DNA from: a virus
Lineage: Duplodnaviria > Heunggongvirae > Uroviricota > Caudoviricetes
Reading direction: 5' to 3' (one strand)
IMG/VR virus record: IMGVR_UViG_2690316028_000010
Length of the DNA stretch: 10,491 nt
The notes under the pieces are model-generated. The model did no database searches. It was not told the origin of the DNA and worked only from the letters and a program-made list of their open reading frames with translations. Below are positions 2,718-10,491 of the stretch, piece by piece. The position numbers were made by a program, and so were the translations under genes. Position 1 is the first letter of the stretch, and each line of letters begins with the position of its first letter.

Positions 2718-3713
2718 ATGACTGACAATGTTTATACCCCTGACCAATTCCGCCCGCACTGGGGCGGTGTAGATGCTGACAACGACATTCACATTGAAGC
2801 GTATGACCGGGACGTTCAGACCCGCCTTGAGGCAAAGAGCGTGTTTCTCGCCGAGGGGCTGAGCACATACAAGCCGCTGAAAAACAGTAATCAGTATCGT
2901 GTAGACCGCCTGAGCGGAGATCTGGAGGTGAAGGGCAGAACCGCAGGGCAATCGCTGGAGCCTACCGCCGTTAAGTCGGACAAGCTGATTATCTCTGTGG
3001 ATACGCTGAGCTATATCCGCATCCCGATTGACTATCAAGACGACTGGACAGCGCCCACCTTTCGCGCAGAGCTGAGCCGCAACATGGGGACAGCCCATGC
3101 AAAGTTCTACGACGAAGCGCACACTATCCAGCTAATCAAAGCGACTGACTTTGTACCGCCGCCTACGTTGCAACCAACGTTTAACCCGCTGACGGATAAT
3201 GTTGTCTCGCTCGACCTGACAACGGGGAGCGAAGAGGATGCGGCTAACGAACTGGTTCACGCTATTAAAGCTGCTGTTAATCGATTCCTAACTGAAAAAG
3301 ATATTCCGGTGGCGGAGCTGTGCCTTCTCATCGACCCAGCTTGGTTCAGCATCCTGATGGAACATAAGAAGTTGATGAACGTCCGTTACAGCCGGGATAG
3401 TGGCAATGATTACGCATGGCGTCGCGTTGGCTATGTCGCTGGGGTGCGAGTTATTGAGCTGAACAGTTACCCGCAGGAAGCCATTACCGCGCATGAACTG
3501 GGCGCTGATTATGATGTGACCGCAGGGGAAGCGCTGACACGGGCGACGCTGTTCCGGCCTGCGTCTGTACTTGTGACAGTCGAAGCGCAGAGCGTTATCA
3601 ATCGCCAGTGGGATGATGAACGCGAAATGACAATGGTGATGGACTCATATCGCCTGTTCAATGTTGGGCTGCGCCGCCCTGACTGCGTTATAAATTTCCG
3701 ACAAGCTGCATAA
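2718..3713 (+). CDS. putative phage major capsid protein (HK97-fold / T7 gp10-like), 331 aa
   Basis: ATG 2718 with SD 'gggag' ~8 nt upstream; stop TAA 3711-3713. Several segments resemble T7-type capsid proteins from memory (e.g. 'IPVAELCLLIDPAWFSILM', C-terminal 'GLRRPDCVINFR'). Followed 17 nt later by an HNH gene, a common capsid-module neighbour. Similarity is by recall, not alignment. Confidence 0.5.
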   Translation: MTDNVYTPDQFRPHWGGVDADNDIHIEAYDRDVQTRLEAKSVFLAEGLSTYKPLKNSNQYRVDRLSGDLEVKGRTAGQSLEPTAVKSDKLIISVDTLSYIRIPIDYQDDWTAPTFRAELSRNMGTAHAKFYDEAHTIQLIKATDFVPPPTLQPTFNPLTDNVVSLDLTTGSEEDAANELVHAIKAAVNRFLTEKDIPVAELCLLIDPAWFSILMEHKKLMNVRYSRDSGNDYAWRRVGYVAGVRVIELNSYPQEAITAHELGADYDVTAGEALTRATLFRPASVLVTVEAQSVINRQWDDEREMTMVMDSYRLFNVGLRRPDCVINFRQAA

Positions 3714-3729
3714 CAAAAGGGGCCGAGCC

Positions 3730-4161
3730 ATGAATATTGATGCTTATGCCCCGGAGCTGTTGCGCTCTTTGTTTCGGTACGATGCGAAGACTGGCCGCCT
3801 GTTCCATGCAGTAGACCGGATCGGAGCCAACAAGCGGATTTACGCTAAAGCCGGGGAACTGGCCGACACGGTAACGGACAGCGCCGGATATAGGCGCGTA
3901 TCTGTCCGCATCAATGGCAAATCTCATGCGCTATACGCCCACCGTGTCGCCTTCATCATTGCTAATGACGGTATCCCTGCCGGGATGCAAATCGACCATA
4001 TCAACGCGGTACGCGATGACAACCGCCTTATCAATCTCCGCACGGTTACGCCACAAGAGAACCAGCACAATTACCGCAAAGCCAAGGGTTATAGCCACCA
4101 TGCCTGCTCTGGCAGATGGGAGGCTTACATTCGCGTTGGTGATCCACCGCGCGATAAATAA
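3730..4161 (+). CDS. HNH endonuclease (HNH_3-type, phage-associated), 143 aa
   Basis: ATG 3730 with SD 'aaagggg'; stop TAA 4159-4161. Clear HNH signature 'IDHINAVRDDNRLINLRTVTPQENQHN' and the N-terminal 'GYRRVSVRINGKSHALYAHRVAFI' pattern typical of this family. Confidence 0.85.
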   Translation: MNIDAYAPELLRSLFRYDAKTGRLFHAVDRIGANKRIYAKAGELADTVTDSAGYRRVSVRINGKSHALYAHRVAFIIANDGIPAGMQIDHINAVRDDNRLINLRTVTPQENQHNYRKAKGYSHHACSGRWEAYIRVGDPPRDK

Positions 4162-4200
4162 GCCGCAATCCGTGAGATAAATGGACACGGTGCGGCTTTT
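4161..4200. terminator. bidirectional intrinsic terminator candidate between convergent HNH and tape-measure genes
   Basis: Imperfect hairpin: 'agccgca' (4161-4167) pairs with 'tgcggct' (4191-4197), inner stem 'ccgtg'/'cacgg', followed by TTTT (4197-4200) on plus strand and an A/T-rich run on the other side. Lies in the 66-bp gap between the two converging stop codons. Confidence 0.5.
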
Positions 4201-4227
4201 CAGATACTGCAAAGGAATTACAGATTA

Positions 4228-6711
4228 TCAGTCGTAAGCAACCCGGCGCTTACGGGCAAGGATAGCTTCCAGTGCTCTTTCAATCTCAGGAATGGACAGC
4301 TTAAGCGCATTGGCCACATCCGGTGCTGGTGACTTGTTCTTGCCATCAATATAGATATTGTTAATGACGTTAATCCCGCCGCCTGCGCCTGCTGGTGAAT
4401 GAGAGTCCCGGCCTCTGGGTAAGGTAAGGTCGCCGCGCATATAGCGCTCTAATACGGGGGGTACTTTCGGCACATCCGGCACCATCATATCAGCCAGCCG
4501 CGAGGAGGCTTTCAGCGCCAGTGATGCAGACTGACCAATGCCAATCGCCGCCCCTTCTGCGATATTAGACCCGAAGCCCATAAATACACGGCTTGGCGAG
4601 TGAATCCCCAGCTTTTCCTTGAACCAGCCGCCGACACTGTCACCCATCTCAGTGACGGTATTCTTGAGAGACTCCCACTTGTTTTTGATACCGTTCACCA
4701 GTCCATCAATCAAGTGACCACCAAACTCAGTAAACTGGCCGGGAAGGTCGATGTTAAACCACTTCATGACCCCCGCAAACGCCTTGTAGAACAGCCCCAG
4801 CGGCGACCAGTTCAGGATTAGCTTACTGACACCAAGAACCCCGCCGTTAAAGGCTGTTTTCACTTCCTCCCACCGCTGCGAGAACCATCGGCTTATCGCG
4901 CCCCAGTTGCGGTAAATCAGGTACGCGCCCCCGGCGATGATGGTTATCGCAATGCCTATGGGGTTCATTAACAGCGCCCTGCCAAACCAGAGGAAAGCCT
5001 TTGCCACCACCATTACGCCTCTGAACAGTCCACCCGCCAGCGCTTTACCCAGCATTCCGGCTCCCTTCGCCACGGTACTGAATCCGGTAGCCAGCCAGCG
5101 CAGCTTTCCGCCGTCGCTCAGGGCGGTTTTGAGCAACAGCCAGTTAGTGCGCAGCAGTACGGCGTTTTTCCACAACCCGGCGAACGGTGATACCAGCAGA
5201 TTCAGGCCGAGTTTCAGCCCGACAGTGGCGATTTTCAGCCCCAGCAGTACGCCCACGGTTTTTGCCACACCCTGAACAATGCCGGGATGTTGCGCTATCC
5301 ATTGCCCGGTGGAATGAATCAGCGGAATCAGTTGCTGCGTCATTGACACGAACGAGGGAGACAGTTGACTGCCAAGGGTAATGGACAGTTCGCGGGTGCT
5401 GACCATCAGTGCTTTGGTCGCCTCCAGCGGCGATTTCAGTCGCTCCGTGTAGGAGGAGGCCAGCAGGTCTTTATCCGCCGCCTTAAGTGCGCCAGCCCTG
5501 ATTTCGCGGTATTTGTCCATGTTGGCGAGCATCGGACGGACAAACGCCATGACCTGCATATCGGCGAACATCTCACCCAGACCGAAATTCTTTGCCAGTT
5601 CCTGTAACGCAAGGTCGCGGGAGTTATCGTCCTTGATTTTCATTGCTTTCTTGAAGCCTGCCAGTGCTTCCGGGCTTTTGGCCTCCAGATACCTGCCCAT
5701 GACGCTTATCATGCCCTCAATGGGCGAGACGCCAGCAGATTTATAAGCCATGAGTGACCCCTGAAGGTCAATCCCGATATCGGCAAACTGTTTCTGCGTG
5801 TCGCGGGCAAAAATCTTGGTGAGGAAGTTACGGAAGTTGTTACCAGCCTCGTCAGATGACCCGGCACCAATTCGGGCAATCTGTAAACTCGCTCCGATTT
5901 CCGCCATCGCTTCTTTACCTTCGGCAATACCGCGCATCATCGGGGCAAGAGATGGCATCCATTTCACCTGGTCAGGTATTTCAAAAGACCCTTGGTCGCC
6001 TGCAAAGGCCATGATGTTCTGTACTTTGGCAAACTCTTTAGCGCTGCCATCCATCGAGTTTTTCCAGACGGCGGCAACCTTCGCCCATTCCGTCCCTGTG
6101 GTGCGTGTGGCAGTAGCGGCGCGGGCTATATTGGGCATGAAGCTGCCAATTTCGGACACACTGTCGATATTGTCACTGATAAGCGAGCCTACGGCGTCCT
6201 GTAAGTCGCTCTGGTACTGGTTGTACTTGAGCGACCATCCCCGGATTTGCTGCCCCAGACTGGCGCGGGTTTTATCGTCATATTTCGCCGTGATCGACAT
6301 ATCAATCATCTTGTCGTCGAACGTAGCCGACTGCTGAATCGCCGGGGAAACGAGGCTGTAAGCGGCTTTGGCCTGCGCCCACGTCTCAATTCCCTGTCCA
6401 TAAAGCGCCATCCGGTTAGCTCTCAGGGCATCGGTTGTGGCAGACGCTGCCGACAGGCGGGACTGCTGGCGGTTTAGTTGCTCCAGCGTTCTGCCTACCC
6501 GTTGCAGGTCATTGTTCAGGCGTGAGGCCACGCCTGAACCTACCTGACCGTAACGCTGCATGGCGCGTGACAGGCTGCTTTGTTGCTCGGTCAGGCGGCG
6601 TGACGTGTCGCCGAGAGAATCAAGCGCCCGCCGTGTGCCGCTGACGGCGGAACGGAAGCTGCTCCCGACAATACCGCCAATCATCACACCAACAGAAAAA
6701 TTATTGCTCAT
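4228..6711 (-). CDS. phage tail tape-measure protein, 827 aa
   Basis: ATG 6711-6709 with SD 'ggagtg'; stop at 4228. Helical N-terminal region, long central Gly/Ala/Leu-rich hydrophobic segment, and C-terminal 'GIHSPSRVF'-type motif that I recall from tape-measure proteins. Size is typical. Confidence 0.75.
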   Translation of the reverse strand: MSNNFSVGVMIGGIVGSSFRSAVSGTRRALDSLGDTSRRLTEQQSSLSRAMQRYGQVGSGVASRLNNDLQRVGRTLEQLNRQQSRLSAASATTDALRANRMALYGQGIETWAQAKAAYSLVSPAIQQSATFDDKMIDMSITAKYDDKTRASLGQQIRGWSLKYNQYQSDLQDAVGSLISDNIDSVSEIGSFMPNIARAATATRTTGTEWAKVAAVWKNSMDGSAKEFAKVQNIMAFAGDQGSFEIPDQVKWMPSLAPMMRGIAEGKEAMAEIGASLQIARIGAGSSDEAGNNFRNFLTKIFARDTQKQFADIGIDLQGSLMAYKSAGVSPIEGMISVMGRYLEAKSPEALAGFKKAMKIKDDNSRDLALQELAKNFGLGEMFADMQVMAFVRPMLANMDKYREIRAGALKAADKDLLASSYTERLKSPLEATKALMVSTRELSITLGSQLSPSFVSMTQQLIPLIHSTGQWIAQHPGIVQGVAKTVGVLLGLKIATVGLKLGLNLLVSPFAGLWKNAVLLRTNWLLLKTALSDGGKLRWLATGFSTVAKGAGMLGKALAGGLFRGVMVVAKAFLWFGRALLMNPIGIAITIIAGGAYLIYRNWGAISRWFSQRWEEVKTAFNGGVLGVSKLILNWSPLGLFYKAFAGVMKWFNIDLPGQFTEFGGHLIDGLVNGIKNKWESLKNTVTEMGDSVGGWFKEKLGIHSPSRVFMGFGSNIAEGAAIGIGQSASLALKASSRLADMMVPDVPKVPPVLERYMRGDLTLPRGRDSHSPAGAGGGINVINNIYIDGKNKSPAPDVANALKLSIPEIERALEAILARKRRVAYD

Positions 6712-6742
6712 GGTTCACTCCGGTTGAGTGGTTCGGTGGGCG

Positions 6743-7336
6743 TCATTCAGTCAGGGACAGGCCGCTGATTCCGGTAATCCCGGCAATTTCTTCGCTGACG
6801 GCTGCCAGTTCACTTTCAAGCCCGGTGCGTTCGCTGACCAGTGCCGCCACGGTCTTACGGCGCTCTGCCAGTGAGGGAAGTTTGTCATTACCCCACGTCA
6901 CGCTCTTATCCTTCTTAAGCGCTTCGGTCAGTCGGGTGGCGACCACATCCGGGAAGAAAAAGCAGAGCTTGCGCATTACCGCCATCCCGGTATCAGCCGG
7001 GGGGACGTTTCCTCCCAGCCCCACCAGACGGAACAGACCGGAAATATCGCCGTTCTCATTTTCCAGATTGCCCCAGCGTTCGGCGTTCCCTTCACCGCCG
7101 GAACCGTTGCAAAGAGCACGCTTGAATGACTGATATTCTTCCTGCCCGAATCGCTCAATATATTCAGGAATAAAGGAACAGTAATCATTAAGTGATAACG
7201 GCATATCCTGTAATGCGGTTATTTCGCCATTAATATCACCAATGCGACGAGAGAGCTTTTCTTTCTGCTCATTCAGGGAGGTAAGGTTATTTTTAACGGC
7301 GTTCAGTGCTTCAATGAGGGAAATAACAGGTTTCAT
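6743..7336 (-). CDS. hypothetical protein, 197 aa, coiled-coil-like N- and C-termini; possible scaffold-like or tail-assembly accessory protein
   Basis: ATG 7336-7334 lies 1 nt after the upstream gene's TAA (taaAATG) with SD 'ggag' inside the upstream gene's 3' end; stop TGA 6745-6743. Heptad-like ends; no slippery heptamer seen at the 3' end. Confidence 0.5.
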   Translation of the reverse strand: MKPVISLIEALNAVKNNLTSLNEQKEKLSRRIGDINGEITALQDMPLSLNDYCSFIPEYIERFGQEEYQSFKRALCNGSGGEGNAERWGNLENENGDISGLFRLVGLGGNVPPADTGMAVMRKLCFFFPDVVATRLTEALKKDKSVTWGNDKLPSLAERRKTVAALVSERTGLESELAAVSEEIAGITGISGLSLTE

Positions 7337-7337
7337 T

Positions 7338-7952
7338 TTAATAACTCCAGATAAAAGGTGTAGTGAGGGTGAGCGCTTCGGAATAGGAGACGTTGCAGGC
7401 TTCGCTTACATCCTTTATTAAAAGGTGCTGCGCTGCCCTCTGGCTGTCGGCTATGCCGTCGAGCTCTGAGAAATAAACGTGTGATTCATTGTGACCAAAA
7501 CAAACCGGGTAAGCGCTTTCCATAAACTCCACCTGCTCAAGCCCCTTTACGGCTGGCGGCTGTGCGCCGAGAAAACCAATATGGCGAAGATACCAGGCAC
7601 CAGTTCCGGCCGGGTTACGCGCTTCTCCCGGCCTGTAGAAAGCGGCAGACACTTTTTTATATAGACCTGACTGAACCATATCCAGCAACCTGTTATCAGG
7701 CTTAACCAGCGCGAAAAGTCTGCCGTTTTTACTTATCAGTCCGGTGGTTTCACCATAGGCGGGACTGTTACTGGCCGGATGCCCCAGGCACAGCGGCGCA
7801 CCATAACCCGCGCGATGATAGCCGTTATAGGCTGCTGCCATGTTGTCGATATCCTCGTCGGAAAAGCTGATTTCCTGCCCCGCCATCGCGGTATGTGTTC
7901 CCGCCCGGAATATCTCAATAGTTTTCCAGTTACCAATATTGATATCTGTCAT
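7338..7952 (-). CDS. putative GPO-family prohead protease / capsid scaffolding protein, N-terminal protease-like domain, 204 aa
   Basis: ATG 7952-7950; stop TAA 7340-7338. Recalled resemblance to P2 gpO N-terminus: 'FRAGTHTAMAGQEISFSDEDIDNMAAAY' vs gpO 'FRIGVEGDTCDGRVISAQDIQEMAETF', and 'LCLGH' vs gpO 'INLEH'. Shorter than P2 gpO (~284 aa). Confidence 0.55.
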   Translation of the reverse strand: MTDINIGNWKTIEIFRAGTHTAMAGQEISFSDEDIDNMAAAYNGYHRAGYGAPLCLGHPASNSPAYGETTGLISKNGRLFALVKPDNRLLDMVQSGLYKKVSAAFYRPGEARNPAGTGAWYLRHIGFLGAQPPAVKGLEQVEFMESAYPVCFGHNESHVYFSELDGIADSQRAAQHLLIKDVSEACNVSYSEALTLTTPFIWSY

Positions 7953-7953
7953 T

Positions 7954-8481
7954 TTATATTTGTCCCTGTTTCATATCGCGGCACTCTTTGTTTTTCTTAC
8001 GCTCGGCGGCAATAATCTGATAAATCCACTGAATAGAATTGCCATATTTCCTGGCTAATTCCCGATGAGTCATCCCTTGTTTGTAATCGGAAAATATCCT
8101 GGCATTTCTGTCGAAAGAGTTTCTGGCTGCGCCATTAGGTATATAGAAATTGTTACCTTTAAAGACCCTTCTAAGGTGTTCTGTAATTTCCGGGGAAATG
8201 ATTTCGGCCTGAGCCGAAAAGCAATGTATTGTAAGCAAAGCCTGCGCTATCACACCTGTAAGCTCATGCAGAAAAGATGTTGCTTTAGGGGCGTCTTCAC
8301 ATTCTATTGGCATGTAATTCTGGCAACCACCAAGATTATCAGATATATGCAAAACAATTTTATTTGCTGCACTACTTGCCTGAAGTTGTGAATAGCCCGC
8401 ATCAGTCAGAAAATCTTCAATCGCATCCCCCATTTCCCCCAGAGTGTCAGATGTTGCGTACAATCCCTCTCTTGTAATCAT
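7954..8481 (-). CDS. Mor/C-family transcriptional activator (Mu middle/late activator family), ~175 aa from ATG 8481
   Basis: C-terminal region matches the Mor pattern: 'NFYIPNGAARNSF' (cf. Mor 'QVYIPRG'), 'RIFSDYKQGMTHRELARKYGNSIQWIYQIIAAERKK' (HTH). ATG 8481-8479 has SD 'gagg' ~7 nt upstream; the ORF-track start at 8487 is a GTG too close to the SD. Stop TAA 7956-7954, 1 nt before the next gene's start. Confidence 0.75.
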   Translation of the reverse strand: MITREGLYATSDTLGEMGDAIEDFLTDAGYSQLQASSAANKIVLHISDNLGGCQNYMPIECEDAPKATSFLHELTGVIAQALLTIHCFSAQAEIISPEITEHLRRVFKGNNFYIPNGAARNSFDRNARIFSDYKQGMTHRELARKYGNSIQWIYQIIAAERKKNKECRDMKQGQI

Positions 8482-8509
8482 AATCACACCTCGGTAATGA
8501 TAAAGATGT

Positions 8510-8614
8510 GCGCTAAAAAGGCTTTATAAAGCTTTATGAGGCGTCTTTCTGGTGACAAATCAGCACATACACCATTAACGCTTTAAAATGGCTTACAGGC
8601 TTTTTTAGCGCGGG
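8510..8614. promoter_or_regulatory. regulatory region upstream of the Mor-like gene: 12-bp palindrome, tandem 'gctttat' and flanking 10-bp inverted repeats
   Basis: 'ataaagctttat' perfect palindrome at 8526-8537; 'gctttat' at 8521-8527 and 8531-8537. 'gcgctaaaaa' (8510-8519) is the inverse of 'tttttagcgc' (8602-8611). Promoter hexamers not confidently assigned. Confidence 0.35.
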
Positions 8615-8681
8615 TTACTAATGTGGATTAAGAATATGGTTTTGGGGCGGGGATGTTTTTTAATGTACTTTAGATATGAAG

Positions 8682-8703
8682 AAGCCCCTCAGAGGAGGGG
8701 CTT
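8682..8703. terminator. GC-rich hairpin (9-bp stem, 4-nt loop) immediately downstream of the 96-aa gene; candidate intrinsic terminator
   Basis: 'aagcccctc' (8682-8690) pairs perfectly with 'gaggggctt' (8695-8703), loop 'agag'. Sits 17 nt past the TAA at 8722-8720; the flanking run on the minus-strand transcript is only moderately U-rich. Confidence 0.45.
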
Positions 8704-8719
8704 GCGGGATTACGCCAGA

Positions 8720-9010
8720 TTATTGAGGTCGTCTGTCTTTCCTCAATCCATCAAGTAGCGCCATGGCATCAGTAACCAGTATGCCAGCAGCATCCGTAAC
8801 CATCGAAACATCAGAGGATGCACATGATTTATCCATACCTAATGTTGACGCAAAATCAAGTAGCTTACGAACTGCGTCAAGTCGATAGGTGGCAGAGTCG
8901 TAAATTAACTCCTGATTAGCATCAGTCTTTAAAAACATAATATCATCAGAGGCACCTTGCGAAAATGACGGCATCGCACGGAAAGTATTTTGAGTTTCAG
9001 CCTGTTTCAT
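8720..9010 (-). CDS. hypothetical protein, 96 aa
   Basis: ATG 9010-9008 overlaps the upstream gene's TGA (ATGA, coupling); SD 'ggagg' ~8 nt upstream; stop TAA 8722-8720. Confidence 0.5.
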   Translation of the reverse strand: MKQAETQNTFRAMPSFSQGASDDIMFLKTDANQELIYDSATYRLDAVRKLLDFASTLGMDKSCASSDVSMVTDAAGILVTDAMALLDGLRKDRRPQ

Positions 9011-9744
9011 TGTGCAGTCCTCCGGCTAATAGCGAATTTATTATAAACTTCATAACTGGCAGCATTCAGTCCGGGGTTGTATTTATCAGCCAGAGCACAG
9101 GCAATCATATGTTCAATAAATTTTGTTATTGCGTTAAGTTCAGTTTCGTTTGAATAACGCAATGCCACTTTGAGTAACTCGCGGCAATATTGTTTTTTAT
9201 TCCCTTCGATTTGGCCTGATTTTTTTATTCCTGCCTTTTTATCTGATTCATCCTCAACAGGCAAAGATGGGATATCCTCTTTATTGGTTAGCGTTCTTTC
9301 GCAAATAATATCTTCACCAGATTGAATTACGCGCTGCAACTCTCTGGCGCTCATACGAAGAATATCATCAAGCGTGTGGTCGTTATATGCCCCACCACTG
9401 GCAAGGAGATCCAGTGTCACTTCATCCAGCCGGGCAAGCAGGTTTAACTTCGTTTTGCCGATACTTGTTTTGGCAATTGCGGCTCGGGGGGTATTGGTTA
9501 CGCCAAATATCAGAGCAACCCGCATAGCATTATGGGCTTCACGTTTATTAATTCCCCCCACTGAAAGCGCCTTTGCAAATTCCTCATTTGTTTTTGTTGC
9601 TTCCTTAAGTGCCAGCATCTCTTTACCACGATGCACTAAAGTTTCAGTCGGGGTTGGCAAAAGGAGTACAGCATCTAAAATTTTTTCCCGAAGTACATCA
9701 ACTTGGCTTGCGATGCATGAACGGTTAGACTTGTTGATACCCAT
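9007..9744 (-). CDS. hypothetical protein, ~245 aa from ATG 9744 (ORF track begins at TTG 9765); candidate early/regulatory protein
   Basis: ATG 9744-9742 preceded by SD 'gagga' ~9 nt upstream; stop TGA 9009-9007. Acidic/Lys-rich linker mid-protein; no P-loop or other catalytic motif recognised. Divergent from the RHH gene. Confidence 0.5.
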   Translation of the reverse strand: MGINKSNRSCIASQVDVLREKILDAVLLLPTPTETLVHRGKEMLALKEATKTNEEFAKALSVGGINKREAHNAMRVALIFGVTNTPRAAIAKTSIGKTKLNLLARLDEVTLDLLASGGAYNDHTLDDILRMSARELQRVIQSGEDIICERTLTNKEDIPSLPVEDESDKKAGIKKSGQIEGNKKQYCRELLKVALRYSNETELNAITKFIEHMIACALADKYNPGLNAASYEVYNKFAISRRTAQ

Positions 9745-9774
9745 GATTGTTATCCTCAATAACAATGGTGGTCA

Positions 9775-9809
9775 GGCAGGATGTGATACTGAACCTATCA
9801 TGTCCTGCC
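9775..9809. promoter_or_regulatory. imperfect dyad symmetry (13-bp arms, 11/13 matching, 9-bp spacer) upstream of the 245-aa gene
   Basis: 'ggcaggatgtgat' (9775-9787) vs 'atcatgtcctgcc' (9797-9809). Could be an operator or a 5'-UTR hairpin of the minus-strand transcript. Confidence 0.3.
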
Positions 9810-9840
9810 GCTTGCGGTTTTACATCTACTTAATGTAATG

Positions 9841-9877
9841 TACGTACCATTGATTTCAATCTAAACAATGGTACGTA
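9841..9877. promoter_or_regulatory. perfect 12-bp inverted repeat with 13-bp spacer (candidate operator) overlapping the RHH gene start codon
   Basis: 'tacgtaccattg' (9841-9852) and its exact reverse complement 'caatggtacgta' (9866-9877). The right arm covers the ATG at 9868-9870. Located in the divergent promoter region. Confidence 0.55.
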
Positions 9878-10071
9878 TCATGTCAAGAGTAAAAGATAAC
9901 ACGCCTAAAAATTCCGCAGGGCGTTCCCCGACCTTCCAAATACGTATTACACCTGAACTTAGGGAACAGCTTGATAAAGAAGCTCTTAAAGATGGTGTAA
10001 GTTTGGCCAATTGGCTCAAAGGCATTGCACGAGATGAACTACGCAGGAGAGGTATTTCTCCAAAAGGGTAG
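9868..10071 (+). CDS. ribbon-helix-helix (Arc/MetJ-like) DNA-binding protein, 67 aa; putative repressor
   Basis: 'FQIRITPELREQLDKEALKDGVSLANWLKGIARDEL' fits the RHH beta-strand plus two helices (cf. Arc 'FNLRWPREVLDLVRKVAEENGRSVNSEIYQRVMESF'). ATG 9868 (alternative ATG 9880), both with weak SD; stop TAG 10069-10071. Confidence 0.6.
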   Translation: MVRIMSRVKDNTPKNSAGRSPTFQIRITPELREQLDKEALKDGVSLANWLKGIARDELRRRGISPKG

Positions 10072-10086
10072 GGCTAATCAGGTACA

Positions 10087-10476
10087 AAAAGCGAAAACGT
10101 TTTCGCTTTTATGGCTAAGAGAGCGGATGCACTCATTAAAGCGGACAGCGCTGTCCGCCTCCAATCAGCAAAAAAACAAGATGGTTCCTCCAAAACGCTC
10201 AACGTTGAGCGTTACGTTATTCCGACAAAAGCGCAGGCGCTTGCGCTTTTGAAAGGGATCAACACGGCTTTCAAACCGGACAACGTTGACCGCTTTAAGG
10301 AATCACTGTCGGCTGAGCAAAAACGGCAAGCGCTTGCCGTTTTAGATTCGCGGGGCGGTAAACGTTTACCGTTCTGTGTCAATTATGTTCAAAAGCGAAA
10401 GCGCTTTCGCATTTTCTCACCTAAAGCGGCAAACCTCCTCTGTCTTAGCTGGAAAAACGACATCGCTGTCGTTTTT
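10087..10476. repeat. array of eight hairpin-capable palindromes of one family (A-tract, CG-rich core, T-tract)
   Basis: P1 10087-10110 aaaagcgaaaac|gttttcgctttt (perfect, 24 bp); P2 10141-10158 gcggacagc|gctgtccgc (perfect); P3 10194-10213 aacgctcaac|gttgagcgtt (perfect); P4 10227-10250 (1 mismatch); P5 10320-10343 aaaacggcaagc|gcttgccgtttt (perfect); P6 10356-10371 cggtaaac|gtttaccg (perfect); P7 10391-10414 (1 mismatch); P8 10453-10476 aaaaacgaca-tcgc-tgtcgttttt. Symmetry kept while sequence differs between copies. Confidence 0.85.
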
Positions 10477-10491
10477 AATCCGAGGTTCTAA
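10111..10491 (+). CDS. ORF of 126 aa overlapping the palindrome array; coding status doubtful
   Basis: ATG 10111 directly after palindrome P1, stop TAA 10489-10491 at window end. Repeated peptide motifs (KAQALALL, KRQALAVL, KRKRFRIF) are direct consequences of the DNA palindromes, so the frame may be open by chance. Confidence 0.3.
   Translation: MAKRADALIKADSAVRLQSAKKQDGSSKTLNVERYVIPTKAQALALLKGINTAFKPDNVDRFKESLSAEQKRQALAVLDSRGGKRLPFCVNYVQKRKRFRIFSPKAANLLCLSWKNDIAVVFNPRF

Follow-up and report, generated by a model that had tools for sequence, protein, structure and literature searches.

The question raised by this locus is what is served by a crowd of short palindromes, each with its own sequence, packed into a few hundred base pairs of phage DNA. 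The window, by which is meant the whole stretch of 10,491 nt that was analysed (IMG/VR record IMGVR_UViG_2690316028_000010, Caudoviricetes), has such an array at 10087-10476. A palindrome is called here when its arms are at least 8 bp long, with at most one mismatch and no gap between them; the arms found are 8-14 bp long. Under this definition the array contains nine palindromes, one more than the eight counted in a sequence-only reading of the window, whose figure of five perfect cores of 16-24 bp holds for five of the nine. The same reading took this density to be beyond chance, and it is: 2000 dinucleotide-preserving shuffles of positions 10072-10491 yield a mean of 0.25 palindromes and a maximum of 3, and the remaining 10 kb of the window contain only two or three palindromes of this kind.

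The palindromes share a plan in which an A-run and a T-run lie outermost, followed inwards by a variable block and a core CA[AG]CG[CT]TG; the array consensus is CAAAA-(4-6 variable)-CA[AG]CG[CT]TG-(variable)-TTTTG, with an invariant central CG. Whether the array extends past the window end, a check suggested by the earlier reading, can be answered from the copy in Escherichia coli AW1.7, which is nearly identical to window 10072-10491 (about 10 substitutions in 420 nt). There, five more palindromes follow the position at which the window ends, giving 14 in about 620 bp (L021:10948-11566), and all 14 differ in sequence. Other variants of the element that carries the array have 4, about 9-12 or about 15 palindromes. 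The spacings between palindrome centres, which range from 28 to 79 bp, show no period when checked for helical phasing, and a blastn search of the array region against the phage collection gave no match. CRISPR, REP/BIME and integron attC arrays were considered and rejected: there are no identical repeats and no conserved asymmetric tetranucleotide, and the units are far shorter and fully symmetric.

The proposal that the copies differ while their self-complementarity is selected can be evaluated from related genomes, in which the substitutions follow a strongly compensatory pattern. Pairing holds for 91% of the symmetric cells in a set of 36 distinct palindromes, compared with 68.7% in shuffles, and the covariation score is 0.525, compared with 0.149 for shuffled palindromes and at most 0.085 when the partners are slid. 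The pair that flanks the centre toggles between G-C and A-T (GC in 22 palindromes, AU in 13 and another pair in one). The palindromes are also more conserved than the spacers that separate them, with identities of 89% and 72% respectively to the array of E. coli ST131, and of 59% and 38% to that of a related IMG/VR record, G002. Pairing, covariation and conservation above the spacers support the conclusion that palindromy is under selection.

Selection of this kind had been attributed either to hairpins or cruciforms or to sites for a dimeric protein. The dyad symmetry is kept at the very centre of the palindromes, where a hairpin loop does not need it, so dimeric sites fit better, and the hairpin half of the proposal loses ground because the central pairs are symmetric too. 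Symmetry through the centre favours recognition by a two-fold symmetric protein on duplex DNA. The strong compensatory pattern and the A/T-rich outer flanks would also be produced if structure alone mattered, that is, if the palindromes acted as DNA cruciforms or single-strand hairpins (for instance in replicative transposition or as a supercoil sink) without any sequence-specific protein; selection for pairing, or correction of one arm from the other by template switching, would then maintain their symmetry. This explanation is considered unlikely: it does not account for the symmetry of the central 2-4 bp, which would form the loop, and it is further weakened by the comparison with helper phages presented below.

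The array is part of a larger element. Two sequences match window 4138-9543 at 91-94% identity: a contig of Intestinirhabdus alba (G001) and G002, which is 7799 nt long, begins exactly at window position 4140 and has the exact extent of the element. Complete copies start with TGATCC and end with TAATCA, and three of them, at unrelated sites, are flanked by the 6-bp target duplications AGTGAA, AAGACA and CCACGG. The left end carries a repeat of the GTGAGATAAAT type, two more copies of which are present at the right end, outside the window. From position 4140 on, the window is the left 6.3 kb of an element of about 7.8 kb with TG..CA ends and 6-bp target duplications. Among 5426 complete E. coli genomes, 48 carry the element or parts of it and 32 carry the array. 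One AW1.7 copy lies in a ynbC-like gene and the other in a lambdoid prophage, within its major capsid gene; the copy in CX21 and MS 115-1 lies between dacD and sbmC, and the I. alba copy splits gene A of a P2-like prophage in two. Insertion into prophage genes recurs. In the window itself, an HNH endonuclease ORF at 3730-4161 has its last 22 nt or so, including the stop codon, inside the element, so that a gene of another phage seems to have taken the insertion, either internally or at its end; the window to the left of the element (2718-4161) includes the major head protein of that other phage (phrog_267, 331 aa against a profile of 410 positions). The features are collected in Table 1.

Table 1. 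Features of the element and of its palindrome array, in window coordinates.
Feature	Position	Strand	Remarks
Left end of element	4140..4230	.	Starts TGATCCACCGCG; homology to G001 and G002 begins here
Tape-measure-like protein, 827 aa	4228..6711	-	PF10145, E 5e-20; 71.6% identical to PhiKM tape measure
197-aa protein	6743..7336	-	Without significant family in profile searches
204-aa protein, like N-terminal part of Mu gpI-type head protease/scaffold	7338..7952	-	phrog_976, E 1e-46; 46% identity to PhiKM
Mor-family transcription activator	7954..8487	-	PF08765, E 1.7e-25
96-aa protein	8720..9010	-	No family assigned; conserved in all element copies
p252, the element's own gp10/DUF3102-like protein	9007..9765	-	Residues 47-148 36% identical to PhiKM gp10; phrog_1748
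Inverted repeat TACGTACCATTG-N-CAATGGTACGTA	9841..9877	.	Divergent promoter region; probable RHH operator
RHH regulator (Arc/HicB-like), 63 aa	9880..10071	+	PF05534, phrog_228; annotated as a 192-nt CDS in AW1.7
126-aa ORF	10111..10491	+	Overlaps array; judged a by-product
P1	10087..10110		Perfect 24-mer; 24/24 identical to gp10 palindrome of helper loci L072, L073, L079 and L081
P2	10138..10161		18-bp perfect core, CGGACAGC class; nearest helper L101/L108, distance 4 over 24, same core
P3	10192..10215		20-bp perfect, CGCTCAAC class; distance 2 from palindrome of L035-L042
P4	10227..10250		GCGCAGGC class; 24/24 identical to L088, L090 and L095
P5	10273..10296		Imperfect, CGGACAAC class
P6	10320..10343		Perfect 24-mer, CGGCAAGC class; 24/24 identical to ten helper loci, e.g. 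L064 and L085
P7	10352..10375		16-bp perfect core CGGTAAACGTTTACCG; nearest helper class at distance 9
P8	10391..10414		GCGAAAGC class; distance 3 from L072 class
P9	10453..10476		ACGACA class; distance 2 from L082

The ORF that overlaps the array had been thought not to be its main function, and this view is upheld by the relatives. If the ORF encoded a real repeat protein in which the palindromes were incidental, the ATG directly after P1 and the 79-aa version annotated by NCBI in E. coli would be explained, but the frame shows nonsense, frameshift or absence in every relative examined, and palindromes past the breaks are intact: codon 80 is changed from TCG to TAG in AW1.7 and CX21 (with P7-P9 intact downstream of it in AW1.7), a 1-nt indel disrupts the frame in I. 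alba, and over the G002 array the ORFs do not exceed 50-63 aa. The frame has no family in Pfam, PHROGs or NCBIfam, and the spacers diverge faster than the palindromes. It looks repetitive because palindromes read in frame yield peptides such as KAQALALL and KRQALAVL; such peptides (e.g. KAQALALL) also occur in gp10, the phage protein discussed below. A real repeat protein is extremely improbable, and the array is non-coding, the ORF being judged a by-product.

The element has no visible means of moving by itself: searches of Pfam, PHROGs and NCBIfam found no transposase and no DDE/rve or MuB-like domain among its proteins. Its Mor, TerS-like, tape-measure, protease-like and p252 proteins all match phages of the BcepMu type (PhiKM, KP12, BcepMu). 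The AW1.7 chromosome also holds a 34-kb BcepMu-like prophage at 4413388-4447690, whose transposase is 98% identical to the IMG/VR one; the right end of the element is 79% identical to the prophage end at 4413388, and the left end is 77% identical to the end at 4447690. The 6-bp duplications fit the Tn552-type transposase of the BcepMu-like phage group. The lack of a transposase, combined with ends of the helper type, indicates a non-autonomous, satellite-like element that needs a BcepMu-like transposase, and by the likeness of its ends to those of the prophage the element is a satellite-like mini transposable phage that would depend on a helper for its movement. The match between the extent of the viral record G002 and that of the element, and the presence of two copies in AW1.7, are indirect signs that a helper may mobilize or package it. 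Helper and element are both present in I. alba and in IMG genome 2713896776, and helper transposase genes occur in 639 of the 5426 complete E. coli genomes. A fact that counts against the helper explanation given below is that in E. coli CX21 the element is present on a chromosome without a helper transposase.

The genes borrowed from the helper side deserve separate mention. The tape-measure gene is full length and 72% identical to that of the helper; a search of its product against PDB sequences gave no match. Past the array (L021:12325-12669) lies a gene for a truncated TerS-like protein of the gp27 family, which retains the N-terminal DNA-binding part of TerS alone; its identity is 75% to a helper TerS and 93-100% across elements. 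The tape measure, the protease/scaffold-like fragment and the N-terminal domain of TerS are candidate factors by which the element could interfere with helper assembly or redirect it. A contig scan with the gp27-like protein found only I. alba and two distant matches. The locus with the 75% identical match (L016) was rejected as an element, being a full helper phage on the same contig as another locus, L086, and it is for this reason that it has no array.

The link between the array and the helpers is a palindrome within one helper gene. In BcepMu-like phages gp10, which encodes a DUF3102 protein, lies between the Ner-like regulator and the transposase, and PhiKM, KP12 and BcepMu each have one perfect palindrome of 28-32 bp inside it. 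When 80 IMG/VR helper loci were collected by gp10 alignment, 78 of them proved to have one perfect palindrome of 24-32 bp at an offset of about 358-364 nt in gp10; the two loci without a palindrome at the usual offset are L098, in which the gp10 frame has stop codons, and L100. The helper palindromes comprise 21 distinct 24-mers, which fall into about 11 half-site classes, and gp10 genes with no more than 53-74% identity to that of PhiKM can still share a class.

The array palindromes correspond to these helper palindromes. Four of the 14 members of the AW1.7 array (P1, P4, P6 and P14) match a helper palindrome exactly over all 24 positions, and P9 and P11 are one base off. The mean distance from a helper 24-mer to the nearest member of the AW1.7 array is 2.05, compared with 3.83 +/- 0.21 after column shuffling, and eight helper 24-mers lie within one mismatch of that array, compared with a null mean of 1.4 and maximum of 4. 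The class of the helper resident in AW1.7 is present in the AW1.7 array at distance 1. The orthologue of P9 in AW1.7 is a perfect palindrome at distance 1 from that of locus L070. Against the explanation proposed below stand P7, the sole palindrome without a helper counterpart, and several members that are imperfect or have 3-4 mismatches to every helper class sampled. These comparisons show the array to consist of non-coding homologues of the helpers' single gp10 palindrome, carried by a transposable element that is predicted to be helper-dependent.

This correspondence bears on the explanation by cruciforms or hairpins alone. The palindrome architecture is common to the Burkholderia phage BcepMu and to enterobacterial phages despite their different sequences, as would be expected if only shape mattered, but a shape-only element should drift freely in sequence, and what is found instead is a set of discrete classes that recur in divergent gp10 genes and in the unlinked array. 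Nor would such an element be expected to have a palindrome class that tracks a helix in a protein, which is what the gp10 sequences exhibit.

Of the helper early genes only gp10 evolves fast: it has a median identity of 74%, compared with 91-93% for the Ner-like regulator, TnpA and TnpB. Its association with palindrome class is near-complete at residues 86-136 and at background level elsewhere. Near-identical phages of different class differ in a gp10 cassette of about 400 nt, and the minimum of identity within the cassette, at nt +248 to +308, corresponds to the predicted recognition helix, upstream of the palindrome, and not to the palindrome itself. The motif of the helix and the half-site are related nearly one to one (RTARL with CGGCAAGC, RTAQV with GCGCA[AG]GC, RTSVR with TGTGCCA and RIAQK with GCGAAA), and the central AACGTT/AGCGCT varies without a change in the helix; within the array, the centre of P8 is AGCGCT in the window and AACGTT in its ST131 orthologue. 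Because no more than about 45-90 nt separate the helix from the palindrome in gp10, much of the association could arise from physical linkage alone. The classes reappear exactly in the unlinked array of the satellite, which argues that the sequences matter in trans.

The structure of gp10 was also modelled. The AF2 model (pLDDT 78) has a helical domain followed by long helices, and in the VIA-align comparison the nearest structures to the domain are Spo0J (1vz0, Z 7.2, rmsd 3.3 A over 106 residues), ParB-parS (6s6h, Z 5.7) and KorB-operator (1r71, Z 5.5), although Z values of 5.5-7.2 are middling for an all-helical protein and can reflect common helix arrangements. A Foldseek search with the model gave no match at E of 0.001 or below, the ParB/KorB-type matches having E above 0.1. 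The homodimer model has an ipSAE of 0.58, compared with 0.00 for the best control, with contacts that agree in at least 82% of runs and a pLDDT of at least 72; the mark used is reached by 20 of 30 known homodimers and by one of 23 single chains. The modelling supports the formation of a gp10 homodimer. In the literature searched, nothing relevant was found on the function of DUF3102, on a palindrome or enhancer in gp10, or on satellites of BcepMu-type phages.

The explanation proposed is that the array is a non-coding, cis-acting panel of predicted binding sites for variants of the helper gp10. In this explanation gp10 is an early-operon protein, encoded just upstream of the transposase and predicted to form a symmetric dimer with a ParB/KorB-like helix-turn-helix; its helix and the palindrome in its own gene would have diversified jointly into about 11 classes. 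The transposase-less element would have stacked from 4 to about 15 of the classes side by side, and the gp10 of any helper variant would find a matching site on it. That the array palindromes are cognate sites, each of one gp10 specificity class, is considered probable, if well short of assured. It is inferred more weakly that gp10 binding would license the element, either (a) through a cis-acting enhancer of transposition or replication, (b) through a sensor that ties expression of the element to the helper early genes or (c) as a decoy, in this order of preference. A helper-dependent element without a transposase has a natural reason to keep the cis site of its helper as an enhancer. Since only one or two members of the array match any helper, the arrangement provides breadth and not high-valency titration, and such a design makes a pure decoy somewhat less likely. 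Conflict, or the avoidance of incompatibility, would fit the unusually fast evolution of gp10 by classes. A more speculative reading, entertained as a serious but minority prospect, is an arms race in which private gp10/palindrome classes limit cross-exploitation and the satellite answers with a "master-key" array of one site from nearly every class, through which any gp10 would license transposition or induction.

If gp10 of the helper is not the binder, the most obvious substitutes are the proteins encoded beside the array. It had been suggested that the adjacent RHH protein binds the array, and this suggestion is not sustained. RHH differs strongly among the window, I. alba and G002, and just upstream of its gene lies, at the same place, a different inverted repeat for each variant. 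The arrays, by contrast, have palindromes in common across elements with different RHH variants. RHH therefore has its own operator, which makes array binding unlikely. The wider explanation, in which the element's own p252 or RHH binds the array as an operator or centromere-like region and the helper gp10 is uninvolved, draws on the facts that p252 belongs to the gp10 family, has no internal palindrome and is encoded next to the array, and that P7 has no helper counterpart. It is nevertheless quite unlikely, because the recognition-helix region of p252 differs between variants that share palindromes, because one protein cannot fit about 11 half-site classes if the helix-site code holds, and because the RHH variants have co-varying inverted repeats at their promoters while the arrays overlap. 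The probable start of p252, which has 245-252 aa across elements, is the methionine of MGINK. Comparison of element variants (homologues from L008, L127 and L007) finds its C-terminal two-thirds conserved, whereas the N-terminus and the predicted recognition helix vary, and from this variation it may have specificity classes of its own. p252 might be the true binder of the array or an additional one, and P7 is a candidate for its target.

Two other explanations give the array a role unrelated to gp10. In the first, the palindromes are packaging sites recognized by the truncated TerS-like protein, which would redirect the helper terminase; this is suggested by the position of the array upstream of the gp27-like gene and by the retention, in a protein 75% identical to a helper TerS, of the DNA-binding part. 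It is very unlikely, given that the helper palindrome lies in gp10, about 6 kb from terS in both BcepMu and PhiKM, and co-varies with gp10, and that arrays unlike in number and class occur in elements whose gp27-like proteins are 93-100% identical.

The second places the function at the level of RNA, with the array as a cluster of bidirectional intrinsic terminators or as a structured or sponge RNA. The succession of A-run, GC stem and T-run resembles a terminator, a terminator scan of L021:10500-12820 gives 8 sites where 2.9 are expected, and contigs from RNA libraries cover the region. These contigs come from an isolate transcriptome (Logan contigs X5 and X6), covering window 9005-10491 at a word depth of about 36-112, and from a wastewater metatranscriptome, covering parts of the region; as contigs they give no strand, ends or level and so speak neither for nor against transcription or termination. 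Only two of the 14 palindromes are among the scan hits, however: P14 and P8, the latter hit twice at overlapping positions. Because the A-run is the pairing partner of the T-run, no U-tail is left, and central palindromy is needless for an RNA hairpin. The helper site lies within a coding gene, and a covariance-model search of Rfam 15 gave no match, the best score being 25 bits against a cut-off of 55 bits. A function of this kind has very little probability. Of the roles listed in the sequence-only reading, the terminator cluster is accordingly not supported, since only P8 and P14 pass the scan, and the structured RNA finds no known family to belong to.

One of the known systems closest to the proposed panel of gp10 sites is the family of ParB centromere arrays (sopC of F, parS clusters) and the KorB OB sites of RK2, which also comprise multiple short palindromes bound by a dimeric helix-turn-helix protein, and in which the site is often in or beside the gene of its own binder. 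The difference is that those arrays repeat one sequence for one protein, whereas here every copy represents another specificity class. In addition, the replicon here is a transposable element that needs no partition, and the fold match is only middling. Neither a ParA-type ATPase nor the N-terminal CTPase domain of ParB was found in the element or beside gp10. A centromere-like role, as first suggested, is therefore a fair analogy in so far as the likely binder may have a ParB/KorB-like fold, and fails in so far as the element has no partition system. Plasmid iterons and incompatibility determinants offer a similar partial likeness, because there too a protein and its site co-diversify into classes and the sites form arrays, but iterons are direct repeats of one sequence recognized by one Rep at an origin, whereas the present sites are dyad-symmetric and all different, and the element lacks a Rep gene, DnaA boxes and an AT-rich region for unwinding.

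The preferred enhancer role of the array has a parallel in the internal activation sequence of Mu and in laboratory mini-Mu, which is likewise non-autonomous, has phage ends and an internal cis site, and uses a helper transposase. The transpositional enhancers of Mu and D108 are phage-specific. The Mu enhancer is an operator region bound by a domain of MuA, whereas the candidate binder here is a separate DUF3102 protein; the helper has one perfect palindrome as its site and a transposase of the Tn552/BcepMu type, which makes 6-bp duplications, and the enhancer role is putative. The element resembles phage satellites (P4, PICI/SaPI, PLE) in being small, in lacking its own replication or transposition and virion genes, in having a co-resident helper and in carrying modules that derive from the helper or mimic it, namely the TerS-like protein, the scaffold/protease-like protein and the late activator. 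It differs from the known satellites, which have integrases and episomal replication, by its transposon ends and target duplications, and the literature searched describes no satellite with an array of allelic helper sites or with a tape-measure gene. As far as can be told, the components (dimeric helix-turn-helix sites, arrays, non-autonomous elements) are familiar, and an array that collects helper alleles in a transposable satellite is new.

If the arms-race reading is true, no satellite of a transposable phage would have been described before this one, nor any comparable multi-allelic array of sites. DUF3102, a widespread family in phages and plasmids, gains a testable candidate role as a dimeric, class-specific binder of palindromes, and the phages of the BcepMu type, which are common prophages of E. 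coli, are found to have a conserved and apparently undescribed cis site. A 7.8-kb element without a transposase moves among genomes and repeatedly sits in the genes of other prophages. To gather the allelic variants of one helper site in an array is an unusual design. If the array is a licence for mobilization, it would reveal a way in which a parasite of phages can remain compatible with a broad range of helpers, and it would explain why one helper gene evolves several times faster than its neighbours.

Several further observations concern the regions around the array and its variants. About 60 bp after the last palindrome in AW1.7, at L021:11620-11915, an inverted repeat of about 33 nt (TGTTAGTGGATGCGTGACGCGCTCAGGTTGAGG and its complement) flanks about 225 bp in which there are a promoter-like site and a hairpin with a T-run after it, and this arrangement is kept in all element variants; it may be a module that inverts or regulates, or else a gene for a small RNA. 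The second AW1.7 copy and the copy in IMG genome 2713896776 (L013/L127:6860-7300) have only four palindromes, one of which is a fusion of two neighbouring array members. In this variant a gene of about 115 aa replaces the first members of the array and is preceded by three palindromes of the TGATAAATATTTATCA type. In E. coli ST131 (L023/L024) a decayed remnant of the element, with no tape-measure gene and no right end, lies between clpA/serW and infA; it is cut by IS5, many ST131 genomes share it as a fixed insertion at this one chromosomal site, and its array has extra members and several degraded palindromes.
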